IMG/VR virus record: IMGVR_UViG_2565956716_000001
Direction: 5' to 3' (one strand)
Source of the DNA: a virus
Taxonomy: Duplodnaviria > Heunggongvirae > Uroviricota > Caudoviricetes
DNA: 13,546 nucleotides
Part shown: positions 1-13,546 of the stretch, in pieces
Layout of the letters: each line of letters starts with the position of its first letter
Position numbering within the stretch: the first letter of the stretch is position 1
Made by a program: the position numbers and the translations under genes
The notes under the pieces: model-generated
What the model was told of the DNA's origin: nothing
Databases searched by the model: none
Seen by the model: the letters and a program-made list of their open reading frames with translations, nothing else

Positions 1-1164
1 TTACGCCTTCTTTATATCCTCCATAATTCCACAGTGGGACATATTTGGGACATTATCACCAAAAATGTCGTCTATTTTCCTTGCATGCTCTGTCAAATGA
101 TTAGGCGCAAGGTGAGCATACCTACGAACCATTTCTATGGACTCCCATCCGCCCATTTCCTGAAGCACAGATAATGGGACGCCTGACTGGATCAGCCAGC
201 TTGCCCAGGTGTGTCTGAGGTCATGGAAACGGAAATCTTCAATTCCTGCACGACGACAAGCTGATAGCCATGATGTCTTGCTGTCGATGCGCATCTTCCT
301 GACCGCAGGCGTTGATGTTCCATCTGCTCGCTTAGCCGCCTTGGTATGTACAAACACCCATTTGTGATGCTTGCCTATTTGATCACGCAACACTTTACAG
401 GCGGTATCGTTCAGCGCCACACCAATGGCGCGGTTTGATTTGCTCTCTTCTGGATTCACCCAGGCAACTCGTCGCTGCATGTCGATTTGTTGCCATTCCA
501 GATTTATGATGTTCGACTTTCTCAGACCAGTTGCCAGCGCAAACTTGACGACAGATTTCAGTGGTTCGGGGCACTCATCAATAAGGCGTTTTGCTTCCTC
601 CTTTTCCAGCCATCTGACGCGCTTGTTTCTGACCGCTGGTATCTTGATGACAGGCGCTTTTTCCAGCCACTTCCAGTCGCGTTCTGCAGCACGGAGAATG
701 GCCTTTATCATGGCAAGATGCTTTGCCTTTGTCTGAGTTGATACTGGCTTTGGTTCATAAACAGGCGGTTCTTTACCTTTCCTGATGGCGGCCTGAACTT
801 TCTGTTTCCATATTTCTTTCGTCTTTCTGTTATGCATTCTGCTTACAGCAGAGTAAATCTTTGCCTCCGAGATATCTTTAAGCCTTATACCCTCAAAATG
901 TTCAAGCCAGAACTCAATCCGGCTTTTATCTGAATCGAGAGATTTTTTATCAGCTTTTTCTTCAAGCCATCTTAGGCAGGCCTCTTCAAAAGTGACATCA
1001 GGTAAATCCCCTAGCTTTTCTACTCGCCAGAGTTCTGCTTTTCGCTTGTCGTGCAACTCCTGAGCTTGCCGCTTGTCCTTTGTGCCAAGAGATTCCTTAA
1101 TTCGTTTCCCGCCCGGGAGCGAATACGAGGCATACCATATTTCATTTCTGCGGAAGAGTGACAT
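1..1164 (-). CDS. intD: Phage tyrosine integrase (P22/DLP12 Int family)
   Basis: 387-aa ORF with C-terminal tyrosine-recombinase motifs (HDLRHTWAS ... VRRYAHL). ATG at 1164 is preceded by a GAGGAAAG Shine-Dalgarno. N-terminus MSLFRR..WYASY..GKR is typical of P22-type integrases. The window starts on its stop codon, so the att site lies outside. Confidence 0.95.
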
Positions 1165-1391
1165 TTTCTTTCCTCTGTTATGCCATCACCCGCGCTCACC
1201 TGGACAGTATGCAGCGGAGACTGAAGCGCCGCAATGCAGGCTTGCCGTGTTGTGAGGTAAGGAGATTTTGGCTTGGTTGGATCTTTACGTGTTGCCTGTA
1301 GGCGGCCTGTTCGTATCCAGTTGGTGGCGGTTGGTCTGGATATCTGAAGAAACTGACAGGCCTCATCGAGTGTGAGGCTGTATGGCTCCAT
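1020..1391 (-). CDS. xisD: Excisionase (HTH DNA-binding, P22 Xis-like)
   Basis: ATG at 1391 with GGTGA RBS, overlapping the upstream stop as TAATG. N-terminal [26 protein letters not shown] is an excisionase-type HTH. The 3' end overlaps the int start by about 145 nt, as in many int-xis pairs. The longer 151-aa frame in the ORF track is probably a 5' over-extension. Confidence 0.65.
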
Positions 1392-1696
1392 TATTTCACC
1401 TCTTGCTGTGTCATTGTTGAAAAATGGATAACAGCTCGTTGCTGCCAGACGATCCAACCGAGAGTCATATCCCATGCCATGTATTCGTTATCGCCGTTTT
1501 TTGCTCTCCGACGATCTACTAAGTCACCGAAACGCTTTTCCATGAATAATTCATAGGCTTCGCGTTCATCTGGCTCTACTTCCAGAGATACGAGTGCGAT
1601 TTCATAAGCACGGCGCTCAATATCGTCTCGAACCTCTAGGCTGCTGATTCGTTCTTTGATTTCTTTAATCAGTTCTTTATTGGTAAATGTGGTCAT
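1391..1696 (-). CDS. Hypothetical acidic phage early protein (ea-like)
   Basis: 101-aa ORF whose ATG overlaps the upstream stop (TAATG) and whose stop overlaps the xis ATG, suggesting translational coupling. Codon usage is coherent; no family recognised. Confidence 0.5.
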   Translation of the reverse strand: MTTFTNKELIKEIKERISSLEVRDDIERRAYEIALVSLEVEPDEREAYELFMEKRFGDLVDRRRAKNGDNEYMAWDMTLGWIVWQQRAVIHFSTMTQQEVK

Positions 1697-1980
1697 TATG
1701 CTCCAGCCTCCGGTGCTTTTGGCATTACTGCCCAGTGAGTGATATTGACGTTTTCAAGGTCCCCGACCTGAAATGTCCACTGCCATTCTCCGGTTTCTTT
1801 TTGTCCCCAGGTGTACCAGAGAGAACGCCAGCCAATCAGCCAGCCTTCTCCATTAGCATCAAATAACAGAACACTTTCATTTGCTGGTGGCAGTTCAGCT
1901 GACACTGGTATTATTTTGTTTTCCAGTGCCCGCACATTTAGCTTCAAGCGCGTCGAATTTACGTACCAGGTACTCAGCAT
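1696..1980 (-). CDS. Hypothetical phage protein with DUF551-like C-terminus
   Basis: 94-aa ORF. The C-terminal W-rich segment ending ..ITHWAVMPKAPE resembles the DUF551 signature (..THWMPLPEPP) common in enterobacterial prophage early regions. Chained to the downstream ORF by stop/start overlap. Confidence 0.5.
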   Translation of the reverse strand: MLSTWYVNSTRLKLNVRALENKIIPVSAELPPANESVLLFDANGEGWLIGWRSLWYTWGQKETGEWQWTFQVGDLENVNITHWAVMPKAPEAGA

Positions 1981-2049
1981 TTGTTTCGTTCACTTTCAGA
2001 TCTCGCGGTACACATTTCCCGCGAAGAAACCCTTCCATTTCGAAAACAT

Positions 2050-2256
2050 TCATGCGCATTTGCGTAACTCCGATAAATCGTTAAAACGTTCCATAAACAT
2101 CCCGTAGGCATGACCCGGTGCCAGTGGAATCACGTTGAACATCTCTGTTGCCGGGATGCCTTCCAGTACAGGCCAGAAAGAGCCATCATCAAGCCCGAGA
2201 TCGCGGCGTTCGGTTGCCAGCATGATGAGATCGGCATATTTCACGGGTGTACTCAT
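2050..2256 (-). CDS. Hypothetical small protein (first gene of leftward int-proximal operon)
   Basis: 68-aa ORF from the ATG at 2256 (the ORF track extends to a TTG at 2274). No strong RBS and no recognised domain. Confidence 0.3.
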   Translation of the reverse strand: MSTPVKYADLIMLATERRDLGLDDGSFWPVLEGIPATEMFNVIPLAPGHAYGMFMERFNDLSELRKCA

Positions 2257-2777
2257 AACTGGGGGTAACCGCAATGCGTCGAATGTTTATCAGCTTAACG
2301 TTGCGAAGCTTCAGGCAGCGGCATTTTCTCAACTGTCAGATTCTGACCCGTCAAAATCTGACGCATCAAAATCTGACCCGTCAAAATTTGATGCGTCGAA
2401 ATCTGGCAAAAAAGCGGGTTTTCACCCGTCAGAATCTGGCGGGGATCCGTCAGTAAAATCAAAACATGATCCGTCAGATAAAAAAACTTCTCGTCCGGAC
2501 GCTTCGCAACCGGACACGCAGACGGCTGAACAGGAGTTTTTAACTCGCCATCCTGATGCGGTTGTATTCAGCCCTAAAAAGCGCCAGTGGGGAACGCAGG
2601 ATGATTTGACCTGCGCACAGTGGCTCTGGAAAAAAATCATCGCCCTGTACGAGCAGGCCGCCGAATGTGACGGCGAGGTGGTTCGTCCCAAAGAACCGAA
2701 CTGGACAGCCTGGGCAAACGAAATTCGCCTGATGTGTGTGAAGAGTGGTATCTGTCAGGGAATTACGTGGGGGCTTA
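2222..2777 (+). pseudogene. Lambda O-like replication initiator remnant (5'-truncated), containing the origin iterons
   Basis: The open frame runs through the iteron array, encoding a low-complexity linker (SDSDPSKSDASKSDPSKFDASKSG...), then about 90 protein-like codons (..AQWLWKKIIALYEQAAECDGEVVRPKEPNWTAWANEIRLMCVKSG..). Where an N-terminal DNA-binding domain should be encoded, the sequence is occupied by minus-strand ORFs. Beyond 2777 the frame turns G/R-rich and overlaps a better gene in another frame. Confidence 0.35.
2336..2410. repeat. Tandem 15-bp direct repeats (five copies, consensus TCAAAATCTGACCCG); putative ori iterons
   Basis: Read directly: tcagattctgacccg / tcaaaatctgacgca / tcaaaatctgacccg / tcaaaatttgatgcg / tcgaaatctggcaaa. 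Degenerate copies (gtcagaatctggcg, gtcagtaaaatc, gtcagataaaaaaac) and A-rich tracts follow to about 2485. Confidence 0.65.
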
Positions 2778-3104
2778 ATGACGACGTTAACTCAATGCCA
2801 GCAGCAGGTGCTGGATATGCTGATTTCTTACCAGAAAGAACGTGGCTTCCCGCCAACCAATCAGGAGGTGGCTACCATGCTGGGATACCGTTCAGTGAAT
2901 GCAGCGGTGGAGCATCTTCGCGCACTGGAGAAAAAAGGCGTCATCACGATAAAGCGTGGCGTGGCCCGGGGCATCACGCTTCATACCGCGGTGAAGGACG
3001 ACGACAGCGAGGTGGCCGGGATTATCCGCGCACTGCTTGCTGGTGAGGAAAACGCCAGGCTGCGTGCAGCCCACTGGTTACATGAGAGGGGGCTGAAAGT
3101 ATGA
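2778..3104 (+). CDS. LexA N-terminal DNA-binding-domain-like protein (winged HTH) lacking the S24 peptidase domain
   Basis: 108 aa from the ATG at 2778 (GGGGG upstream). MTTLTQCQQQVLDMLISYQKERGFPPTNQEVATMLGYRSVNAAVEHLRALEKKGVI aligns along its length with the LexA N-terminus ([56 protein letters not shown]). It ends in a short helical-looking tail and its stop overlaps the rusA ATG (ATGA). Confidence 0.7.
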   Translation: MTTLTQCQQQVLDMLISYQKERGFPPTNQEVATMLGYRSVNAAVEHLRALEKKGVITIKRGVARGITLHTAVKDDDSEVAGIIRALLAGEENARLRAAHWLHERGLKV

Positions 3105-3490
3105 AGCTGATTCTGCCTTTTCCACCCAGCGTGAACACCTACTGGCGACACCCCAACAAAGGGGCATTTGCTGGTAAGAGCCTGATAAGCGCGGCGGGGC
3201 GAAAATTCCAGAGTGCGGCGTGCACAGCAATAGTTGAGCAGTTACGTCGTCTGCCGAAACCAACGTCGGCACCTGCTTCAGTGGAGATCGTGTTGTTTCC
3301 TCCGGATAACCGGATCCGCGATCTGGACAACTATAACAAGGCGCTGTTTGACGCCCTGACCCACGCGGGTGTGTGGGAAGACGACAGTCAGGTGAAAAGA
3401 ATGCTGGTGGAGTGGGGACCGGTTATCCCGGAAGGGAAGGTCGAGATCACTATCAGTAAGTACGAGAAAACGGCGGGTGCAGCCGCCTGA
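3101..3490 (+). CDS. rusA: RusA-family Holliday junction resolvase
   Basis: 129 aa with GAGAGGGGG RBS. The motif RDLDNYNKALFDALTHAGVWEDDSQV matches the RusA catalytic-region signature (RDLDN...FDAL...DD.QV). Confidence 0.85.
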   Translation: MKLILPFPPSVNTYWRHPNKGAFAGKSLISAAGRKFQSAACTAIVEQLRRLPKPTSAPASVEIVLFPPDNRIRDLDNYNKALFDALTHAGVWEDDSQVKRMLVEWGPVIPEGKVEITISKYEKTAGAAA

Positions 3491-3509
3491 TCAAGAGGAG
3501 AAACGAAGT

Positions 3510-4307
3510 ATGAATAATCTGATGGTCATTGATGGTATTGAAGTTCGTCGTGATGCTTATGGGCGTTACAGCCTGAACGATCTGCACAGGGCTGCCGGTT
3601 CTCTGGATAAGCATAAGCCTGCATTCTGGCTCCGCAATGAGCAAACTGAACGTTTAATAAGCGAGTTGCAGATTTGCAACTCGGTCAATATAGAGCCAGT
3701 TAACGTTATTCGTGGCGGAAATAACCAGGGGACGTATGTCTGCAAAGAACTGGTGTATGCCTATGCAATGTGGATCAGCCCGTCATTCCATCTGAAGGTG
3801 ATCCGTACTTTCGATATGGTAACCAGCGCATCGGAAAAATTATCCGGGCAGGCTGCTGACAAGATGCAGGCTGGCGTGATTCTGCTGGACTTTATGCGCC
3901 GGGAGTTAAACCTGTCTAACTCTTCAGTGCTTGGTGCCTGTCAGAAACTCCAGGAGGCTGTTGGCTTACCGAATCTGGCACCGCGCTATGCCATTGATGC
4001 TCCTGCTGACGCGCCTGATGGCTCAAGCCGTCCCACGCTGTCACTGAGTGCACTGCTGAAGCAGTATGGTATCCGCCTGACAGCTAATCAGGCATATCAC
4101 CAGATGGTGAAGCTGGGGATCGTCGAGCAGCGCGAACGATACAGCCGTACCGCGATTAACAACATCAAAAAATTCTGGTCGCTGACAGCGAAAGGCTGCA
4201 TGTTCGGCAAGAACATCACCAGTCCCGCAAATCCGCGCGAGACGCAGCCGCATTTCTTCGAATCCCGATTCCCTGAGCTGTTAAAGCTGCTCGATACCGT
4301 TCATTGA
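3510..4307 (+). CDS. KilA-N domain DNA-binding protein (Roi/antirepressor-like)
   Basis: ATG at 3510 with AGAGGAG RBS. The N-terminal MNNLMVIDGIEVRRDAYGRYSLNDLHRAAG...KPAFWLRNEQT is a typical KilA-N domain; the C-terminal half is unassigned. Confidence 0.8.
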   Translation: MNNLMVIDGIEVRRDAYGRYSLNDLHRAAGSLDKHKPAFWLRNEQTERLISELQICNSVNIEPVNVIRGGNNQGTYVCKELVYAYAMWISPSFHLKVIRTFDMVTSASEKLSGQAADKMQAGVILLDFMRRELNLSNSSVLGACQKLQEAVGLPNLAPRYAIDAPADAPDGSSRPTLSLSALLKQYGIRLTANQAYHQMVKLGIVEQRERYSRTAINNIKKFWSLTAKGCMFGKNITSPANPRETQPHFFESRFPELLKLLDTVH

Positions 4308-4308
4308 G

Positions 4309-5304
4309 GTGACCGTGAGAGCACTACTGACCCCTGAAATTGCCCCGCGTATGGGGATCGTATTGTTCAGGCCCGGTTCAGAGCTGATGCCCCTGTTTAT
4401 GCAGGGGCGTGTACTGCTGGAGCCTGAGCCGGAGCATTATTCATCTTTCGCCAGTGGTGCCGTTCCCGCGGCATCACAACCGCTGGCGGATGATCCTGCC
4501 GTTCGGGCCGTGTTCCGTAATGAGGCAGTGATTCGTCGTGCTGGTGGGGTGGAATGTCTTGAAAGCTGGTTACTTCGTGAAAAAGGCTGCCAGTGGCCTC
4601 ATTCCGACTGGCACAGCGAGAACATGACCACAATGCGACACGCGCCGGGCGCAATCCGTCTGTGCTGGCACTGCGATAATCAGTTACGTGATCAGTTCAC
4701 GGAGCGGCTGGAATCAATGGCAACGGATAACTGTGCCCGTTGGGTGTTGTCTGTAGTCCGTCGGGATCTCGATTTTAATGATAACCATGCCGTGACAATG
4801 CCGGAACTGTGCTGGTGGCTGGTTCGTAATGACCTGGCGGATGCCTTACCGGAAAGCGCAGCCCGTAAGGCACTGAGATTACCGAAGTCTGTTTTGCCGT
4901 CTGTCACTCGGGAAAGTGACCTTGTGCCTTCGGTTCCTGCCACCAGCATTATCCAGGATAAAGCGAAAAAGGTGCTGGCGCTGAAAGTGGATCCGGAGTC
5001 GCCGGAGTCTTTTATGTTACGCCCCAAACGTCGTCGCTGGGTTAATGAACAGTACACGCGCTGGGTTAAGACGCAGCCGTGTGCATGTTGTGGAAAGCCA
5101 GCTGATGATCCGCATCATCTGATAGGCCATGGTCAGGGTGGAATGGGTACAAAAGCGCATGACCTTTTTGTGCTGCCTTTGTGCAGAAAACACCACGACG
5201 AACTGCATGCGGATACCGTGGCATTTGAAGAGAAGTATAGCTCCCAGCTGGAGCTGATATTTCGTTTTATCGATCGCGCACTGGCGATTGGTGTGCTGGC
5301 CTGA
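4309..5304 (+). CDS. DUF968-family protein with C-terminal HNH-like motif
   Basis: 331-aa ORF. The C-terminus [31 protein letters not shown] is the cysteine/histidine motif of DUF968 proteins found next to Q in lambdoid prophages. Start is uncertain: GTG at 4309 sits 1 nt after the upstream stop, with internal ATG alternatives. Confidence 0.7.
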
Positions 5305-5321
5305 TTTTGTGGAGAAAGTTA

Positions 5322-5705
5322 ATGCGTGATATTCAGATGGTTCTTGAACGTTGGGGAGCGTGGGCGGCTAATAATCATGAAGATGTGACCTGGTCGTCCA
5401 TTGCCGCCGGTTTTAAGGGATTAATTCCTTCAAAAGTAAAATCTCGCCCGCAATGTTGTGACGATGACGCGATGATCATTTGCGGGTGCATGGCCCGTCT
5501 GAAAAAGAACAACAGCGATTTGCACGATTTATTAGTAGATTATTATGTAGTCGGTATGACATTCATGTCACTGGCAGGTAAGCATTGCTGCTCTGATGGT
5601 TATATCGGGAAAAGGTTACAGAAGGCTGAGGGCATAATTGAAGGGATGTTAATGGCATTAGATATCCGGTTAGAGATGGATATCGTTGTTAATAACTCTA
5701 ATTAA
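5322..5705 (+). CDS. quuD: Late-gene antiterminator Q (DLP12 QuuD-type)
   Basis: 127 aa from the ATG at 5322 (GGAGAAAG RBS); the ORF track begins 5 codons earlier at a [21 protein letters not shown]... with a Cys-rich zinc-binding region ([12 protein letters not shown] ... HCC) fits the small Q antiterminator family. Confidence 0.85.
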
Positions 5706-5728
5706 TATGCCAATTGTTTACTGAAAGT

Positions 5729-5756
5729 TATTAAAAATGGGGCGTTGCAACGCCCC
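5729..5756 (-). terminator. Intrinsic terminator for minus-strand (porin) transcripts
   Basis: Perfect palindrome GGGGCGTTGCAACGCCCC at 5739-5756, followed on the minus strand by ATTTTTAAT. On the plus strand it is followed by CAAAAATAAA, so it works in one direction only. Confidence 0.55.
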
Positions 5757-5844
5757 CAAAAATAAAGGGTAATATATAACAGAAGGTTTATATAGTTAGA
5801 AGCAAGGTTGTGCTCCTAAAGGAAGTGGCTTGAGGGAGCCACTT

Positions 5845-5885
5845 ATATGTTGGGGAGGCAACGCCTCCCGCAACATATCTTTTTC
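5845..5885 (+). terminator. Intrinsic terminator on plus strand downstream of Q (candidate tR'-like)
   Basis: Long hairpin ATATGTTG-GGGAGGC-AAC-GCCTCCC-G-CAACATAT at 5845-5878, followed by CTTTTT at 5879-5884. It lies about 140 nt after the Q stop, matching the lambda arrangement in which a short PR' transcript ends at tR' unless Q-modified. Confidence 0.5.
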
Positions 5886-5894
5886 GTAATCAGA

Positions 5895-6992
5895 TTAGAA
5901 CTGGTAAACCAGACCTACAGCAACGATGTCATCAGTGCTTACACCGAGTGCTTTAGTGAAGTCATTTTTGTCAAGCAGGTTGATTTTGTAATCAACGAAA
6001 GTAGACATATTTTTGTTGAAGTAATAGGTTGCACCTACATCAACATATTTGACTAAGTCCTGATCGCCCCATACTCCAAGATCCTTACCTTTAGATTGCA
6101 GGTAAGCAACGGACGGACGCAGACCGAAATCGAACTGATATTGTGCAACAGCTTCGAAGTTTTGAGCTTTATTAGCAACGAAGTGATCAGCAAATACAGT
6201 CATATTCTGGGTTTCAGAATAGGTAGTGGCCAGGTAAATGTTGTTAGCGTCATATTTCAGACCTGCGGCCCAAACTTCTGCATTTTTACCGGAAGCAAAT
6301 ACTTCAGGAAGAACTTTCCCTGCATTAACTTGAGTGTCGGTACGATCAGATTTCGCATAAGTTGCACCGATACCGAATCCTTCGTATTCATAGGTAGCAG
6401 AGAAACCGAAGCCATCACCGTTACCTTCGGTGTAGTTATCGAAATCGCTACGATCGTTTTTGCCTTGGTACTGAGCAGCAAAGTTCAGACCATCAACCAG
6501 ACCAAAGAAGTCGTTGTTACGATAGGTTGCAACACCAGTGGTGCGACCAGTCATGAACACATCTGTTTGGGTCCAGGTATCGCCACCGAATTCTGGCAGA
6601 ACGTCAGTCCACGCACCGATGTCGTATGCTACACCGTAGTTACGGCCGTAATCGATTGAGCCGTAGTCACCGAATTTCAGGCCTGCAAATGCAAGACGGG
6701 TTTTGTCTTTGGAGGAACCTTGAGATTCAGCGCGGTTGCCTTTGAATTCATATTCCCACTGACCGAAACCAGTCAGCTGATCGTTGATTTGGGTTTCGCC
6801 TTTGAAGCCCAGACGAACATAAGTAGTATCACCATCATCTGCATCGTTAGAGGAAAAGTAGTGCTTGGCATTAACTTTCCCGTACAGATCCAGCTTGTTA
6901 CTGTCTTTATTATAAATTTCAGCTGCCTGAGCAGACATCGCCATCAGTACTGATGCAGCTACAGCAGAAATTGCCACTGTTAATTTTTTCAT
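5895..6992 (-). CDS. nmpC: Outer-membrane general porin NmpC (OmpC/OmpD/Lc family), intact
   Basis: 365 aa with signal peptide [27 protein letters not shown] and a C-terminal ..VAVGLVYQF beta-barrel motif ending in Phe. ATG at 6992. Uninterrupted ORF in this window. Confidence 0.95.
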
Positions 6993-7470
6993 CGTGAGCC
7001 CTTTTTTTTGAACTATTATTAAAAAATGATGTCACTGCGCGATAAATATTCATCTAATCAATGTGATTATTTCAAGATGTAAGTTTTAGTTTCTCATTTA
7101 ATTTGTGAAGTAGATCTCTATTTTTATCTGAACTTTTTCTATCGAAACCTATTTATGGCTCTTATTTGAACAAAAATAAATCTATTAGCTAATTTATATT
7201 AATGGCTGTTATTTATGGTGGTTCTATAATTTGTCTGTTTAATTTAAACCAGCTAAAAATAACGCTGGAAATTATTTATTGGTTATTTGTTGAAGTTTTC
7301 TTATGTATTTGTGGTGGTGTTTTGAACACTCGGTAGCATTCTCATAAATATCATTCAGTGGTTTACGTACGTAAAAAATTGGTTATGCTGTTAAGAGTGG
7401 TTACTTCGTCACACAGCTTAAACCCGCCGTCGAGCTGGTTTTTCCATTTTTTGAGTCTCGATATTAGCTG
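6993..7470. promoter_or_regulatory. AT-rich regulatory region upstream of nmpC (porin promoter, likely nucleoid-protein bound)
   Basis: About 480 bp of strongly AT-rich non-coding sequence between the divergent porin and lysis genes, with no ORF of 60 aa or more. No promoter elements could be assigned with confidence. Confidence 0.3.
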
Positions 7471-7528
7471 ATAACTCAATACCTGAGTTATTCACTGACT
7501 CGGAGTCAGTTACGTTTCTGCTTTTTTG
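7471..7528 (+). terminator. Tandem hairpins plus T-tract upstream of the holin gene (possible terminator or operator)
   Basis: ATAACTCA-ATACC-TGAGTTAT (7471-7491) and ACTGACT-CGG-AGTCAGT (7494-7510), then CTTTTTTG at 7521-7528. The T-run lies about 11 nt from the second stem, so terminator function is uncertain. Confidence 0.3.
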
Positions 7529-7580
7529 CGATACGTTGTATTCCCTCAATTTACACCCGCTTTGTCTGCGAGGTGGGGTT

Positions 7581-7796
7581 ATGAAATTCATGGATAAGTT
7601 AACAACTGGAGTCGCCTATGGCACCTCAGCAGGTAGTGCCGGTTACTGGTTTTTACAGCTGCTCGATAAAGTCACTCCCTCACAGTGGGCAGCAATAGGT
7701 GTGCTGGGTAGCCTGGTATTTGGCCTGCTGACGTACCTGACAAACCTTTATTTCAAGATTAAAGAAGATAAGCGCAAGGCTGCGAGAGGTGAATAA
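7581..7796 (+). CDS. essD: Class II holin (phage 21 S / pinholin type) with dual-start motif
   Basis: 71 aa from the ATG at 7581 (GAGGTGGGG RBS), with a second in-frame ATG at 7590 (M-K-F-M), the dual-start arrangement of S21 holin/antiholin. Two transmembrane segments and a charged C-terminus ([13 protein letters not shown]). Stop overlaps the next ATG as TAATG. Confidence 0.9.
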
Positions 7797-8293
7797 TGCC
7801 TCCATCATTACGAAAAGCCGTTGCTGCTGCTATTGGTGGCGGAGCAATTGCTATAGCATCAGTGTTAATCACTGGCCCAAGTGGTAACGATGGTCTGGAA
7901 GGTGTCAGCTACATACCATACAAAGATATTGTTGGTGTATGGACTGTATGTCACGGACACACCGGAAAAGACATCATGCTCGGTAAAACGTATACCAAAG
8001 CAGAATGCAAAGCACTCTTGAATAAAGACCTTGCCACTGTCGCCAGACAAATTAACCCGTATATCAAAGTCGATATACCGGAAACAACGCGCGGCGCTCT
8101 TTACTCATTCGTTTACAACGTGGGTGCTGGCAATTTTAGAACATCGACGCTTCTTCGCAAAATAAACCAGGGCGATATCAAAGGCGCATGTGATCAGCTG
8201 CGTCGCTGGACATACGCTGGCGGTAAGCAATGGAAAGGCCTGATGACTCGTCGTGAGATTGAGCGTGAAGTCTGTTTGTGGGGGCAACAGTGA
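7796..8293 (+). CDS. rrrD: SAR endolysin (T4-lysozyme-like muramidase, phage 21 R type)
   Basis: 165 aa. The Gly/Ala-rich N-terminal segment [20 protein letters not shown] is a signal-anchor-release domain. Catalytic Glu35-Asp44-Thr50 are in the expected spacing ([18 protein letters not shown]). Confidence 0.92.
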
Positions 8294-8751
8294 GCAGAGT
8301 AACCGCGATTATATCCGCTCTGATTATCTGCATCATCGTCAGCCTGTCATGGGCGGTCAATCATTACCGTGATAACGCAATCGCCTACAAAGCCCAGCGC
8401 GACAAAAATGCCAGAGAACTGAAGCTAGCGAACGCGGCAATTACTGACATGCAGATGCGTCAGCGTGATGTTGCTGCGCTCGATGCAAAATACACGAAGG
8501 AGTTAGCTGATGCGAAAGCTGAAAATGATGCTCTGCGTGATGATGTTGCCGCTGGTCGTCGTCGGTTGCACATCAAAGCAGTCTGTCAGTCAGTGCGTGA
8601 AGCCACCACGGCCTCCGGCGTGGATAATGCAGCCTCCCCCCGACTGGCAGACACCGCTGAACGGGATTATTTCACCCTCAGAGAGAGGCTGATCACTATG
8701 CAAAAACAACTGGAAGGAACCCAGAAGTATATTAATGAGCAGTGCAGATAG
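8290..8751 (+). CDS. rzpD: i-spanin Rz
   Basis: 153 aa from the GTG at 8290, which overlaps the endolysin stop (GTGA); an alternative GTG lies at 8278. N-terminal transmembrane helix followed by a coiled-coil-like periplasmic domain. Confidence 0.85.
8510..8692 (+). CDS. rzoD: o-spanin Rz1 lipoprotein, embedded in the +1 frame of Rz
   Basis: 60 aa with AAGGAG RBS at 8497-8502 and ATG at 8510. Lipobox LVVVGC and a proline-rich mature part ([15 protein letters not shown]), wholly nested inside the Rz gene. Confidence 0.8.
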
Positions 8752-8782
8752 AGCTGACCATATCGATGGGCAACTCATGCAA

Positions 8783-9076
8783 TTATTTTGAGCAATACAC
8801 ACGCGCTTCCAGCGGAGTATAAATGCCTAAAGTAATAAAACCGAGCAATCCATTTACGAATGTTTGCTGGGTTTCTGTTTTAACAACATTTTCTGCGCCG
8901 CCACAAATTTTAGCTGCATCGACAGTTTTCTTCTGCCCAATTCCAGAAACGAAGAAATGATGGGTGATGGTTTCCTTTGGTGCTACTGCTGTCTGTTTGT
9001 TTTGAACAGTAAATGTCTGTTGAGCACATCCTGTAATAAGCAGGGCCAGCGCAGTAGCGAGTAGCATTTTTTTCAT
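8783..9076 (-). CDS. borD: Bor lipoprotein (serum-resistance / outer-membrane lipoprotein)
   Basis: 97 aa with lipoprotein signal MKKMLLATALALLITGC. Matches the lambda Bor family along its whole length as recalled. Confidence 0.9.
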   Translation of the reverse strand: MKKMLLATALALLITGCAQQTFTVQNKQTAVAPKETITHHFFVSGIGQKKTVDAAKICGGAENVVKTETQQTFVNGLLGFITLGIYTPLEARVYCSK

Positions 9077-9366
9077 GGTGTTATTCCCGATGCTTTTTGA
9101 AGTTCGCAGAATCGTATGTGTAGAAAATTAAACAAACCCTAAACAATGAGTTGAAATTTCATATTGTTAATATTTATTAATGTATGCCAGGTGCGATGAA
9201 TCGTCATTGTATTCCCGGATTAACTATGTCCACAGCCCTGACGGGGAACTTCTCTGCGGGAGTGTCCGGGAATAATTAAAAACGATGCACACAGGGTTTA
9301 GCGCGTACATGTATTGTATTATGCCAACGCCCCGGTGCTGACACGGAAGAAACCGGACGTTATGAT

Positions 9367-9777
9367 TTAGCGTGGAAAGATTTGTGTAGTGTTCTGAATG
9401 CTCTCAGTAAATAGTAATGAATTATCAAAGGTATAGTAATATCTTTTATGTTCGTGGATATTTGTAACCCATCGGAAAACTCCTGCTTTAGCAAGATTTT
9501 CCCTGTATTGCTGAAATGTGATTTCTCTTGATTTCAACCTATCATAGGACGTTTCTATAAGATGCGTATTTCTTGAGAATTTAACATTTACAACCTTTTT
9601 AAGTCCTTTTATTAACACGGTGTTATCGTTTTCTAACACAATGTGAATATTATCTGTGGCTAGATAGTAAATATAATGTGAGACATTGTGACGTTTTAGT
9701 TCAGAATAAAACAATTCACAGTTTAAATCTTTTCGCACTTGATCGAATATTTCTTTAAAAATGGCAACCTGAGCCAT
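9367..9777 (-). CDS. ybcV: YbcV-like (DUF1398-type) protein
   Basis: 136 aa from the ATG at 9777 (GGAAGG about 9 nt upstream); the ORF track extends to 9900 (177 aa). AT-rich gene in the position occupied by the DUF1398 'envelope protein' ORF of lambda and DLP12. Family assignment is from position and recalled features. Confidence 0.55.
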
Positions 9778-10062
9778 TGGTAAAACCTTCCATGTGATAC
9801 GAGGGCGCGTAGTTTGCATTATCGTTTTTATCGCTTCAATCTGGTCTGACCTCTTTGTGTTTTGTTGATGATTTATGTCAAATATTAGGAATGTTTTCAA
9901 TTAATAGTATTGGTTGCGTAACAAAGTGCGGTCCTGCTGGCATTCTGGAGGGAAATACAACCGACAGATGTATGTAAGGCCAACGTGCTCAAACCTTCAT
10001 ACAGAAAGATTTGAAGTAATATTTTAACCGCTAGATGAAGAGCAAGCGCATGGAGCGACAAA

Positions 10063-10269
10063 ATGAATAAAGAACAATCTGCTGATGATCCCTCCGTGGA
10101 TCTGATTCGTGTAAAAAATATGCTTAATAGCACCATTTCTATGAGTTACCCTGATGTTGTAATTGCATGTATAGAACATAAGGTGTCTCTGGAAGCATTC
10201 AGGGCAATTGAGGCAGCGTTGGTGAAGCACGATAATAATATGAAGGATTATTCCCTGGTGGTTGACTGA
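10063..10269 (+). CDS. ybcW: YbcW-like small protein
   Basis: 68-aa ORF ([22 protein letters not shown]...) divergent from the ybcV-like gene, in the position of DLP12 ybcW and lambda p79. Confidence 0.6.
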
Positions 10270-10433
10270 TCACCATAACTGCTAATCATTCAAACTACTT
10301 AACCTGTGACAGAGCCAACACGCAGTCTGTCACTGTCAGGAAAGTGGTAAAACTGCAACTCAATTACTGCAATGCCCTCGTAATTAAGTGAATTTACAAT
10401 ATCGTCCTGTTCGGAGGGAAGAACGCGGGATGT

Positions 10434-10628
10434 TCATTCTTCATCACTTTTAATTGATGTATATGCTCTCTTTTCTGACGTTAGCCTCCGACGGCAGGCT
10501 TCAATGACCCAGGCTGAGAAATTCCCGGACCCTTTTTGCTCAAGAGCGATGTTAATTTGTTCAATCATTTGGTTAGGAAAGCGGATGTTGCGGGTTGTTG
10601 TTCTGCGGGTTCTGTTCTTAGTTGACAT
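10434..10628 (-). CDS. ylcI: Small ribbon-helix-helix (Arc/CopG-like, DUF3950) DNA-binding protein
   Basis: 64 aa. Basic N-terminus (RTRRTTTRNIRF) followed by a predicted strand-helix-helix (PNQMIEQINIALEQKG..FSAWVIEACRRRL). GGGG RBS upstream of the ATG at 10628. Confidence 0.6.
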   Translation of the reverse strand: MSTKNRTRRTTTRNIRFPNQMIEQINIALEQKGSGNFSAWVIEACRRRLTSEKRAYTSIKSDEE

Positions 10629-10779
10629 GAGGTTGCCCCGTATTCAGTGTCGCTGATTTGTATTGTCTGAAGTTGTTTTTACGTTAAGTTGATGCAGATC
10701 AATTAATACGATACCTGCGTCATAATTGATTATTTGACGTGGTTTGATGGCGTAGATGCACGTTGTGACATGTAGATGA

Positions 10780-11016
10780 TAATTATTATCATTTTGCGGG
10801 TCCTTTCCGGCGATCCGACAGGTTACGGGGCGGCGACCTCGCGGGTTTTCGCTATTTATGAAAATTTTCCGGTTTAAGGCGTTTCCGTTCTTCTTCGTCA
10901 TAACTTAATGTTTTTATTTAAAATACCCTCTGAAAAGAAAGGAAACGACAGGTGCTGAAAACGGGCTTTTTGGCCACTGTCGTTTCCTTTCTCTGTTTTT
11001 GTCCGTGGAATGAACA
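10780..11016. other. Lambda-type cos site: cosQ, cosN (12-nt cohesive end GGGCGGCGACCT at 10828-10839), cosB
   Basis: The string ..gatccgacaggttacg|gggcggcgacct|cgcgggttttcgctatttatgaaaattttccggtttaaggcgtttccgttcttcttcg.. matches the joined right and left ends of phage lambda as recalled. The Nu1 start lies about 190 nt from cosN, as in lambda. Confidence 0.8.
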
Positions 11017-11562
11017 ATGGAAGTCAACAAAAAGCAGCTGGCTGAAATTTTCGGCGCGAGTATCCGTACCATTCAGAACTGGCAGGAGCAGGGAATGCCC
11101 GTTCTGCGAGGCGGTGGGAAGGGTAATGAGGTGCTTTATGACTCTGCCGCCGTCATAAAATGGTATGCCGAAAGGGATGCTGAAATTGAGAACGAAAAGC
11201 TGCGCCGGGAGGTTGAAGAACTGCGACAGGCCAGCGAGACAGATCTCCAGCCAGGGACTATTGAGTACGAACGCCATCGACTTACGCGTGCGCAGGCCGA
11301 CGCACAGGAGCTGAAAAATGCCAGAGACTCCGCTGAAGTGGTGGAAACCGCATTCTGTACTTTCGTGCTGTCGCGGATCGCAGGTGAAATTGCCAGTATT
11401 CTCGACGGGATCCCCCTGTCGGTGCAGCGGCGTTTTCCGGAACTGGAAAACCGACATGTTGATTTCCTGAAACGGGATATCATCAAAGCCATGAACAAAG
11501 CAGCCGCGCTGGATGAACTGATACCGGGGTTGCTGAGTGAATATATCGAACAGTCAGGTTAA
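11017..11562 (+). CDS. nohD: Terminase small subunit Nu1
   Basis: 181 aa, [36 protein letters not shown]..., collinear with lambda Nu1 over its full length. N-terminal winged HTH and P-loop-like GGGKG. Confidence 0.95.
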
Positions 11563-13546
11563 CAGGCTGCGACATTTTGTCCGCGCCGGGCTTCGCTCAC
11601 TGTTCAGGCCGGAGCCACAGACTGCCGTTGAATGGGCGGATGCTAATTACTATCTCCCGAAAGAATCCGCATACCAGGAAGGGCGCTGGGAAACACTGCC
11701 CTTTCAGCGGGCCATCATGAATGCGATGGGCAGCGACTATATCCGTGAGGTGAATGTAGTGAAGTCTGCCCGTGTCGGTTATTCCAAAATGCTGCTGGGT
11801 GTTTATGCCTACTTTATAGAGCATAAGCAACGCAACACACTTATCTGGTTGCCGACGGATGGTGATGCCGAGAACTTTATGAAAACCCACGTTGAGCCGA
11901 CCATCCGCGATATTCCGTCGCTGCTGGCGCTGGCTCCGTGGTATGGCAAAAAGCACCGGGATAACACGCTCACCATGAAGCGTTTCACCAATGGTCGTGG
12001 CTTCTGGTGCCTGGGCGGTAAAGCGGCAAAAAACTACCGTGAAAAGTCGGTGGATGTGGCGGGTTATGATGAACTTGCTGCCTTTGATGATGATATTGAA
12101 CAGGAAGGCTCTCCGACGTTCCTGGGTGACAAGCGTATTGAAGGCTCGGTCTGGCCAAAGTCCATCCGTGGCTCCACGCCCAAAGTGAGAGGCACCTGTC
12201 AGATTGAGCGTGCAGCCAGTGAATCCCCGCATTTTATGCGTTTTCATGTTGCCTGCCCGCACTGCGGGGAGGAGCAGTACCTTAAATTCGGCGATAAAGA
12301 GACGCCGTTTGGCTTCAAATGGACGCCGGATGATCCCTCCAGCGTGTTTTATCTCTGCGAACATAATGCCTGCGTCATCCGCCAGCAGGAGCTGGACTTC
12401 ACTGATGCCCGTTATATCTGCGAAAAGACCGGGATCTGGACCCGTGATGGCATTCTCTGGTTTTCGTCATCCGGTGAAGAGATTGAGCCACCGGACAGCG
12501 TGACCTTTCACATCTGGACGGCGTACAGCCCGTTCACCACCTGGGTGCAGATTGTCAAAGACTGGATGAAGACGAAAGGGGATACGGGAAAACGTAAAAC
12601 CTTCGTGAACACCACGCTCGGTGAGACATGGGAAGCGAAAATCGGTGAACGTCCGGATGCTGAAGTGATGGCAGAGCGGAAAGAGCATTATTCAGCGCCC
12701 GTTCCTGACCGTGTGGCTTACCTGACTGCCGGTATCGACTCCCAGCTGGACCGCTACGAAATGCGCGTATGGGGATGGGGGCCGGGTGAGGAAAGCTGGC
12801 TGATTGACCGGCAGATTATTATGGGCCGCCACGACGATGAACAGACGCTGCTGCGTGTGGATGAGGCCATCAATAAAACCTATACCCGCCGGAATGGTGC
12901 AGAAATGTCGATATCCCGTATCTGCTGGGATATTGGCGGGATTGACCCGACCATTGTGTATGAACGCTCGAAAAAACATGGGCTGTTCCGGGTGATCCCC
13001 ATTAAAGGGGCATCCGTCTACGGAAAGCCGGTGGCCAGCATGCCACGTAAGCGAAACAAAAACGGGGTTTACCTTACCGAAATCGGCACGGATATTGCAC
13101 CACCAGATATTCCTGCTGGCTTTGTGGCTGTTTTCAACAGTGATGAGGCATCGTGGCATCTCGTTGAAGATCATCGGGGTAAAACGGTTTATGACGTGGC
13201 TTCCGGCGACGCGTTATTTATTTCTGAACTCGGCTCATTACCGGAAAATGTCACCTGGTTATCCCCGGAAGGGGAGTTTCAGAAGTGGAACGGCACAGCT
13301 TGGGTGAAGGATACGGAAGCAGAAAAACTGTTCCGGATCCGTGAGGCGGAAGAAACAAAAAACAGCCTGATGCAGGTAGCCAGTGAGCATATAGCGCCGC
13401 TTCAGGATGCTGTGGATCTGGAGATCGCAACGGAGGAAGAAACCTTGTTGCTGGAAGCCTGGAAAAAGTATCGGGTGTTGCTGAACCGTGTTGATACATC
13501 AACTGCACCTGATATTGAGTGGCCTACGAACCCTGTCAGGGAGTAA
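11537..13546 (+). CDS. Terminase large subunit gpA (N-terminal ~519 aa) fused in frame to the C-terminal ~150 aa of tail-fibre assembly protein Tfa; deletion remnant
   Basis: GTG start at 11537 overlapping the Nu1 3' end. Residues 1-519 follow lambda gpA ([14 protein letters not shown]...[10 protein letters not shown]...). After ..LTEIGTD (codon 519 at 13091-13093) the sequence continues [35 protein letters not shown]...[13 protein letters not shown], which is the Tfa C-terminal region. The window ends on its stop codon. Confidence 0.88.

Follow-up and report, generated by a model that had tools for sequence, protein, structure and literature searches.

An intact lambda-type cos site in a DLP12-family prophage remnant of Escherichia coli

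What can the packaging site of a phage still do once the genes for the particle are gone? The question is raised by a stretch of 13,546 nucleotides (the whole of the DNA analysed here, referred to below as the window; IMG/VR record IMGVR_UViG_2565956716_000001), which carries a cos region at 10,780–11,016. A sequence-only reading of the window had suggested that the element to which it belongs, with its int and xis, a functional cos and Nu1, could in principle be cut and packaged by the terminase of a helper lambdoid phage.

Completeness of the cos region

The sub-sites of lambda cos have been defined in the papers of Feiss and Murialdo. cosN comprises 12 bp together with the 2 bp that flank them at either end, and cosQ is a conserved 7-mer upstream of it; I2 extends over bp 18–50, of which bp 30–35 are critical; R3 covers bp 50–65; and R1 and R2 carry one identical 16-mer, R1 being accessory (Feiss and Murialdo papers). 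It has also been published that normal termination of packaging requires cosQ and cosN, and that a 3-bp deletion between cosN and R3 is severely defective. A 238-bp lambda fragment (48446–182) is enough for helper packaging of cosmid multimers according to published work, and plasmids with cloned cos become transferable by lambda and phi80.

When the right and left ends of the lambda genome (NC_001416) were joined and then aligned with the window, a complete lambda-type cos was found at 10,780–11,016. All six defined sub-sites (cosQ, cosN, I2, R3, R2 and R1) are identical to lambda base for base and follow one another in the lambda order and orientation, which bears out the earlier impression that cosQ, cosN and cosB are intact. 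The packaging-termination signal cosQ (GGGTCCT, plus strand) lies at 10,798–10,804 and is invariant in all eight of the sequences aligned below. We take it to be lambda 48473–48479, but the conclusion does not depend on the exact coordinates because the whole of 48473–48485 is invariant in the compared sequences. cosN (10,826–10,841, unstranded; CGGGGCGGCGACCTCG) is 16 bp long and the same as in lambda, has no second copy in the window, and consists of the 12-nt cohesive-end sequence GGGCGGCGACCT with a conserved CG dinucleotide on each side. The 12-mer occurs a single time in the window, at 10,828–10,839, precisely where the ends had been predicted, and by the lambda definition of cosN nicks would be expected at 10,827/10,828 on the top strand and at 10,839/10,840 on the bottom strand.

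The remaining sub-sites are equally well preserved. I2 (lambda bp 18–50, the critical bp 30–35 included) occupies 10,845–10,877 on the plus strand and is followed on the same strand by R3 (10,877–10,892; lambda bp 50–65; AGGCGTTTCCGTTCTT), the critical cosB binding site for TerS (Nu1); the spacing between cosN and R3 is that of lambda, with no indel in between. The interval between R3 and R2 (10,893–10,935, plus strand) is identical to lambda throughout and contains the predicted IHF site I1, placed here by the R3-I1-R2 architecture. R2 (10,936–10,951, minus strand) is inverted relative to R3 and R1, and its reverse complement CTGTCGTTTCCTTTCT is the same as R1, the accessory TerS site (10,977–10,992, plus strand). 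From R1 to the Nu1 start codon the window is again identical to lambda, and the counterpart of the 238-bp lambda fragment maps by alignment to 10,771–11,008 on the plus strand. Judged by cosN, cosQ, the order of cosB, the cosN–cosB spacing and I2, the region is a lambda-type (complex) cos site.

An origin of this cos by chance or artefact was ruled out by the unique cosN together with homology at an E value of about 1e-120. An RNA element in the cos region was likewise discarded, Rfam giving only IS009, far off at 13,305–13,503. A scan of 10,300–11,200 for promoters and terminators returned counts at chance level.

Significance of the differences from lambda

In the region compared, the window departs from lambda by ten substitutions, in spacers or flanks, and by the loss of 1 bp between R2 and R1. 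There is neither indel nor substitution within 10,828–10,960, and between lambda 48472 and bp 133 the sole difference is a T>C change at 48486 (window 10,811). The only cosB differences fall in the R2–R1 spacer (10,952–10,976, plus strand), where three changes were found: G>A at lambda bp 134 (10,961 A), the 1-bp deletion at 137/138 and T>A at bp 150 (10,976 A). All the differences lie in spacers, and all but one are also found in plaque-forming phages.

This last point comes from an alignment of eight sequences: the window, lambda, K-12 DLP12 and the wild phages PhiR11_1, Turner, 2H10, PhiR34_1 and PhiR29_2. All five wild phages are on record as complete genomes, with a plating host or an isolation from the environment, the viability of the PhiR phages being taken from GenBank record fields (complete genomes, named plating hosts). 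Positions 10,740–10,960 of the window are identical to PhiR11_1 and Turner. The 1-bp R2–R1 'deletion' is present in the seven non-lambda sequences (five wild phages, K-12 DLP12 and the window), which makes lambda the odd one out, and it was rejected as a defect since all five viable wild phages and K-12 DLP12 have it. The A at 10,961 is also found in 2H10 and PhiR34_1, and the only private change is the A at 10,976 (T at lambda bp 150), 1 bp outside the 16-bp R1 core. Variation across the eight sequences is almost entirely confined to spacers, with none in cosQ, cosN, I2 or R2. R3 has one variable position (bp 53), at which the window carries the lambda base, and R1 has one (bp 151), which varies in 2H10 only. 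Point differences that would disable cosN or the R sites of cosB, which the sequence-only reading had named as grounds for giving up its proposal, were thus looked for and none was found in the comparison with lambda.

An intact appearance might nevertheless be deceptive. The cos could be an inert relic that goes unused owing to the change next to R1, to its chromosomal context or to the rarity of phages of lambda specificity, its DNA simply having yet to decay. That one private base change adjoins R1 is what such a relic might show, although R1 is accessory, the change falls outside its 16-bp core and the essential sub-sites are all identical to those of viable phages. We regard this explanation as unlikely, for these reasons and for others that appear below.

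The terminase genes next to cos

The gene that follows cos, nohD (11,017–11,562, plus strand), encodes a full-length terminase small subunit, Nu1, of 181 aa (178/181 identical to lambda Nu1; Pfam Phage_Nu1, 335 bits), as had been claimed. Two of the three differences from lambda are common to viable phages and K-12 NohD, D10E alone being private, and both the recognition helix (residues 17–24) and the wing (31–39) are unchanged.

The truncation of gpA was also read correctly, although it takes the form of an in-frame fusion. The match to gpA ends at residue 519, and 1,557 bp of gene A are retained, fused in frame to tfa with the junction at 13,093|13,094. The resulting gpA'-'Tfa ORF (11,537–13,546, plus strand; 669 aa) consists of gpA residues 1–519 followed by a tail-fibre-assembly part (Caudo_TAP, residues 520–669), and its Pfam matches are GpA_ATPase, GpA_nuclease (profile positions 2–235 of 294) and Caudo_TAP. 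Gone are the 122 C-terminal gpA residues, which presumably take in the dimerisation helix, the portal-binding tail and some of the nuclease region. The gpA'-'Tfa protein should be incapable of cutting or packaging, and because the resident gpA is without these residues the cos acts in cis but does nothing by itself. The truncated gpA also has two private substitutions, L260F and T466I, which, together with D10E in Nu1, hint at relaxed constraint and to that extent speak for an inert relic.

A defective prophage at the DLP12 locus

Matches to the window at 100% identity were found in three complete E. coli chromosomes. In one of these, E. coli MSHS 472, the window sits between tRNA-Arg (argU) and ompT, which is the DLP12 locus of K-12, and its genes quuD, porin, essD, rrrD, rzpD, bor, ybcV, ybcW and ylcI, then cos and nohD, are ordered as in K-12 DLP12. 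A 50-nt direct repeat corresponding to the 3' end of the tRNA is found at the 3' end of argU and again 18,608 bp downstream, beyond ompT (MSHS 472). With its site at tRNA-Arg (argU) and the att repeats, its intD and late gene order, and the loss of head and tail genes described below, the element belongs to the DLP12 family of defective prophages.

The window is not the whole of this element. It starts 15 nt past the tRNA and contains neither att, and its edges are the stop codons of intD and of the A'-'tfa ORF rather than element ends; moreover, 684 bp present in the three matching genomes are absent from it at 2738–2740. The size of 13.5 kb assumed earlier therefore has to be corrected to approximately 17.9 kb in the window's own variant, the att repeats being 18.6 kb apart in the closest genome. 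The accompanying statement that the structural genes are gone holds, since they are absent both from the window and from its flanks in the matching genome.

The integrase gene intD (1–1164, minus strand; 387 aa) is intact by annotation and Pfam. Next to it, a xis-like ORF (1020–1391, minus strand; 123 aa) with an excisionase-type helix–turn–helix (HTH_17) is open and full length, and its frame is 98–99% identical, over 100% of its length, to one found in viable phages. PGAP annotates only a 66-bp fragment at this ORF. A loss of xis as in K-12, where the 5' part is gone, was ruled out here by the open frame, and int and xis can indeed both be counted as present, as had been supposed. Iteron-like 15-bp repeats (2321–2443, plus strand) lie in the part of the truncated O gene that survived deletion and are a possible ori remnant. 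Frameshifted and truncated genes are found among the genes of the element in the annotation of the matching genome.

Origin by deletion from a viable phage

A phage of the parent type is available as a complete genome. PhiR29_2 (PV340557.1; 46,180 bp) covers window positions 1–13,094, with 98.7% identity over 96% of the window. Its map runs from int, cI, cro, O, Q, porin, S, R, Rz, bor, ybcV, ybcW and ylcI to cos, Nu1 and A, and then through all head and tail genes, stf, tfa, ybcY and a hydrolase gene to ompT. Deletion breakpoints were mapped by pattern searches against this phage. At 2255|2271 of the window (PhiR29_2 2269|7327) about 5.05 kb has been lost, from the 5' end of yfdR to the 5' end of O; cI and cro are gone with it, as are the promoter region and 237 nt at the start of O. 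At 13,093|13,094 (PhiR29_2 19,499|39,888) the loss amounts to 20,388 bp, from A codon 520 to tfa codon 45; it is in frame and removes all head and tail genes. Also lost from the window relative to PhiR29_2 are a methyltransferase gene and 684 bp of O (3' end) and yfdN. The element has thus arisen by deletion from a viable phage of the PhiR29_2 type.

The exact A–tfa junction was found in three of 5,426 complete E. coli genomes. That the deletion variant is rare and recent is again a point in favour of an inert relic. The intact cos of this element is best explained by its recent origin, and nothing points to selection, which its retention does not require given the rarity of the junction and the independent deletions found in other strains.

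Other members of the lineage have decayed differently. In strain AMSCJX02, where cos and NohD are identical, genes A and W are complete, the portal gene is truncated and int is interrupted by a stop codon; gene A is thus kept in three remnant types to the extent of 309 bp (K-12), 1,557 bp (window) or its full length (AMSCJX02). Because the deletions in K-12, the window and AMSCJX02 differ, several independent decays of one prophage lineage have to be assumed. All these independently deleted remnants retain cos and nohD, which could suggest that the pair has been domesticated for interference, NohD and gpA'-'Tfa, with cos as a sink, sequestering or poisoning the terminase of incoming lambda-type phages in defence of the cell. 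In its favour, NohD is intact and the fusion retains the N-terminal and ATPase parts of gpA. However, the very unequal retention of A (309 bp, 1,557 bp, full length) argues against selection on one truncated product, lambda grows on K-12 despite DLP12, and recombinants with DLP12 nu1 are viable; we find interference hard to credit at all.

Prospects of satellite-like transfer

A rival role for this cos develops the one originally proposed. A helper of the same family, sharing its Int/Xis specificity, would excise the element, replicate it in trans at the iterons and package it from cos to cos as multimers, moving the element as a whole in the manner of a satellite or a cosmid. Every cis-acting site that this would demand is present (attL, attR, the iteron-like repeats and cos), int is intact, nothing is missing from the xis-like ORF, the same int/xis and cos occur in viable phages such as PhiR29_2, Turner and Kati, and PICIs and cosmids show that multimers bearing cos fit full-size heads.

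Several findings stand against it. The element cannot make concatemers alone because cI and cro are deleted and O is cut short at both ends: one deletion took these two genes, the promoter region and 237 nt from the 5' end of O, another a further 684 bp of O and yfdN. Lambda heads accept roughly 78–105% of the lambda length. A dimer of the element would have 74–77% of that length and a trimer 111–115%, both outside this range. There is no sign of satellite-specific genes in an element that is 98.7% identical to an ordinary phage and carries frameshifted and truncated genes, and its K-12 homologue is not excised during lambda infection. Finally, 13 kb of near-identity to the helper would favour recombination over independent transfer. 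When set against PICIs, the element has a doubly truncated O with iteron-like repeats and no primase or replicase gene where a replication initiator and origin of its own would be expected, and in place of dedicated hijacking functions it has the phage's own cosB and genes that are ordinary lambdoid ones by annotation. The original proposal was partly right: the cos is intact and, in principle, usable by a helper, but size and context had been misjudged, and mobilisation of the element as a unit is in our view very unlikely. The warning that came with it, that mobilisation would be inefficient, was justified.

A related scenario would have this rare deletion variant be an incipient satellite. 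Either a PhiR29_2-type phage would excise, trans-replicate and package it, or a tandem integration of such a phage at argU would create an interval of about 40 kb between helper cos and remnant cos that could be packaged. We think it very improbable that this takes place. If it did, the element would be a natural snapshot of a defective prophage turning into helper-dependent mobile DNA that carries the porin and ompT genes, and it is only if helper-dependent transfer is real that the locus opens a new question.

A likely role as terminase cut site and recombination spot

The cos of the window is intact in sequence and matches that of viable phages, and the element around it derives from such a phage by deletion. 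The explanation that we find best, and consider probable, is that it is the passively inherited cos of a DLP12-family remnant, cut by terminases of lambda specificity with recombination and abortive rightward packaging as the consequences. A phage of lambda packaging specificity growing in the cell would make terminase; Nu1 would bind R3-I1-R2 together with IHF, gpA would nick cosN, and the chromosomal cos would be cut. The double-strand break would make the locus a hot spot for recombination between the phage and the remnant, from which hybrid phages would arise. Terminase is reportedly lethal to the cell by way of chromosomal cos.

Part of this has a precedent in K-12. Lambda and K-12 DLP12 share a 3,353-bp, 98%-identical stretch over R, Rz, cos, nu1 and A, recombinants of lambda with DLP12 are 100-fold more frequent than those with Rac or Qin, and 10 of 19 lambda–DLP12 junctions immediately adjoin cos (De Paepe et al., 2014). 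From this clustering of junctions the authors proposed, rather than showed directly, that both partners suffer a double-strand break at cos (De Paepe et al., 2014). In lambda, nu1, R and Rz from DLP12 are functional, recombinants with DLP12 nu1 being viable, and no excision of DLP12 was seen during lambda infection (De Paepe et al., 2014). The clustering of junctions at cos, the working nu1 and the lack of excision have been shown for the K-12 homologue only; for the copy in the window, cleavage and abortive packaging in place are what we would expect. That the K-12 DLP12 cos, which is the more divergent of the two, is a recombination hot spot speaks against the cos described here being an inert relic.

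Packaging, if it began at the chromosomal cos, would do so in place and proceed rightward, through nohD, A', ybcY, ompT, nfrAB, cus and ent. The direction of packaging in the integrated state is from cosN to cosB, nohD and ompT, so that int, xis and the greater part of the element are left behind. A search for a second cosN in this direction (up to three mismatches allowed in 17 bases) found none within about 60 kb. Because there is no second cos within a headful, proper termination would be impossible, and the outcome of packaging in place would at most be defective particles with one cohesive end. Such 'doc' particles are reportedly defective and of low infectivity. This outcome fits the published statement that lateral transduction is not performed by cos phages. 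It has also been published that unexcised chromosomal intervals between the cos sites of prophages are packaged by helper terminase, with yields of 0.7–2 phage per cell, and a helper terminase acting on the cos of the window would agree with these cos-to-cos studies as well as with K-12 DLP12. Two reservations apply to the preferred role as cut site: chromosomal topology or nucleoid proteins could restrict access to cos, and the private A at 10,976, 1 bp outside R1, may have an effect.

Lambda-type cos is ubiquitous in E. coli. The 237-bp cos region was found, at a coverage of at least 80%, in 3,984 of 5,426 E. coli genomes (~73%), at ~95–100% identity, with E values down to 5e-120 and a median of two places per genome, and it is also present in 95 phage records at 96–98.5% identity. 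Neither the phages with a cos of this type nor the host genomes that carry one are therefore rare, which is a further argument against an inert relic. The more general implication is that the cos sites of decayed prophages can remain fully competent in sequence. Such remnants provide a lambda-type phage that infects the cell with a place to cut and with a partner for recombination that is nearly identical over 13 kb. Phages are documented to become mosaic, and to pick up cargo such as the porin gene, by this route among others.

Comparison with known systems

The cos of DLP12-family remnants is real, common and already known. The 'DLP12 cos junction' has also been used in earlier work (Poteete et al., 2004), and a 2026 prophage review contains no mention of 'cos' as a whole word. 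K-12 DLP12 is the closest relative described: integration site, integrase and the order from quuD to nohD are the same, the cos regions align throughout, cosQ, cosN, I2, R2 and R1 are identical, and so is 99% of NohD. The two elements differ in that K-12 keeps 309 bp of A whereas 1,557 bp fused to tfa are kept here, in their early regions (this element has no IS3, IS5 or emrE), in xis, which is open here and a pseudogene in K-12, and in R3, which is identical to lambda here while K-12 has a T at bp 53. Unlike that of phage lambda itself, this cos sits in a remnant without a functional large terminase subunit and without capsid genes.

Cos-type PICIs such as EcCICFT073, and cosmids, resemble the element in having a lambda-like cosQ and cosN, a combination that helper terminase packages as multimers in full-size heads. 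PICIs, however, replicate themselves, and they encode Rpp, by which TerS is redirected, and differ in their cosB; the element retains the cosB of the phage, lacks a replication initiator and is plainly a decayed phage. Packaging from this cos would resemble the lateral transduction of pac-type prophages in starting from a packaging site within a prophage that has not been excised and in running on into the chromosome, except that pac headful phages can end anywhere and cos phages need a second cos.

The nearest phage counterparts of the element are PhiR29_2 and its relatives PhiR29_1, PhiR49_1, Kati and Turner, in which the cos is of the same type and the gene order agrees with that of the element as far as A codon 519 and once more after the start of tfa. 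The practical value of the element is limited, and its main use is as a well-mapped example of a remnant for which a complete phage of the parent type is at hand.

Deletions in the prophage lineage at argU

Within one prophage lineage at argU, at least three independent deletions have taken place, all of which terminate in or near tfa (12001-15870 in the AMSCJX02 remnant, L011; 17335-18598 in the K-12 DLP12 locus, L008; and the window). Their starting points differ: about codon 100 of A in K-12, codon 520 of A in the window, and an early position within the portal gene in AMSCJX02. In AMSCJX02, both terminase subunits are intact beside a cos identical to that of the window.

In the window, a 20.4-kb deletion has placed codon 45 of tfa directly behind codon 519 of gpA with the reading frame exactly preserved (junction 13093|13094), which yields a chimeric gpA'-'Tfa ORF of 669 aa at 11537-13546. 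RefSeq treats this ORF as two features, one a pseudogene and the other a CDS named 'terminase gpA endonuclease subunit'. This junction is found in just three of the 5,426 complete E. coli genomes searched. The tfa-derived 3' portion of the fusion ORF contains a plus-strand match to Rfam IS009 (13305-13503; 221.6 bits against a gathering score of 117). Three substitutions are private when compared with lambda and viable relatives, Nu1 D10E (11044-11046), gpA' L260F and gpA' T466I, which is consistent with mildly relaxed constraint in this remnant, their number being too small for testing.

A further 684 bp, present in three otherwise 100%-identical genomes, are missing from the window at 2738-2740, with a 3-bp overlap at the breakpoint, which indicates that the source of the window is a close relative outside the 5,426 complete genomes. 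Lost with this segment are most of yfdN and the end of the O remnant on its 3' side. Within the retained middle part of the truncated O replication gene sit five to six tandem copies of a 15-bp iteron-like repeat, TCAAAATCTGACCCG and variants thereof (2321-2443, equivalent to 11321-11443 in L001, the closest matching chromosomal locus). These repeats look like an origin remnant, which might still be recognizable by the O protein of a related phage.

Genes and frames of uneven annotation

On the minus strand, a xis-like frame of 123 codons (1020-1391) is open, with a good ribosome-binding site and an excisionase-type HTH. Viable phages have the corresponding frame at 98-99% identity along its whole length, and several phage records leave it without annotation or label it hypothetical. 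At 1020-1391, PGAP marks no more than a 66-bp pseudogene fragment. Several phage records also list hypothetical proteins for short minus-strand ORFs overlapping cos (10644-10901 and 10914-11072); since these ORFs extend across the terminase-binding sites, they are probably artefacts of gene calling. Just upstream of quuD, a DUF968 protein of the YdfU family (4309-5304) weakly matches an HNH-nuclease signature (HNHc_6, E 2.4e-6). An HNH protein is required for cos cleavage in some other cos phages, but not by lambda-type terminase.

A viable counterpart of DLP12

The right end of the viable phage PhiR29_2 (PV340557.1; 41608-44232) carries ompT, encoding an omptin, and an alpha/beta hydrolase gene, and in the same phage a porin gene adjoins Q. 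In the chromosome (L001 24502-27595) the att repeat is situated past ompT. It follows that ompT at the argU locus is phage cargo and that PhiR29_2 is a complete, living counterpart of DLP12.
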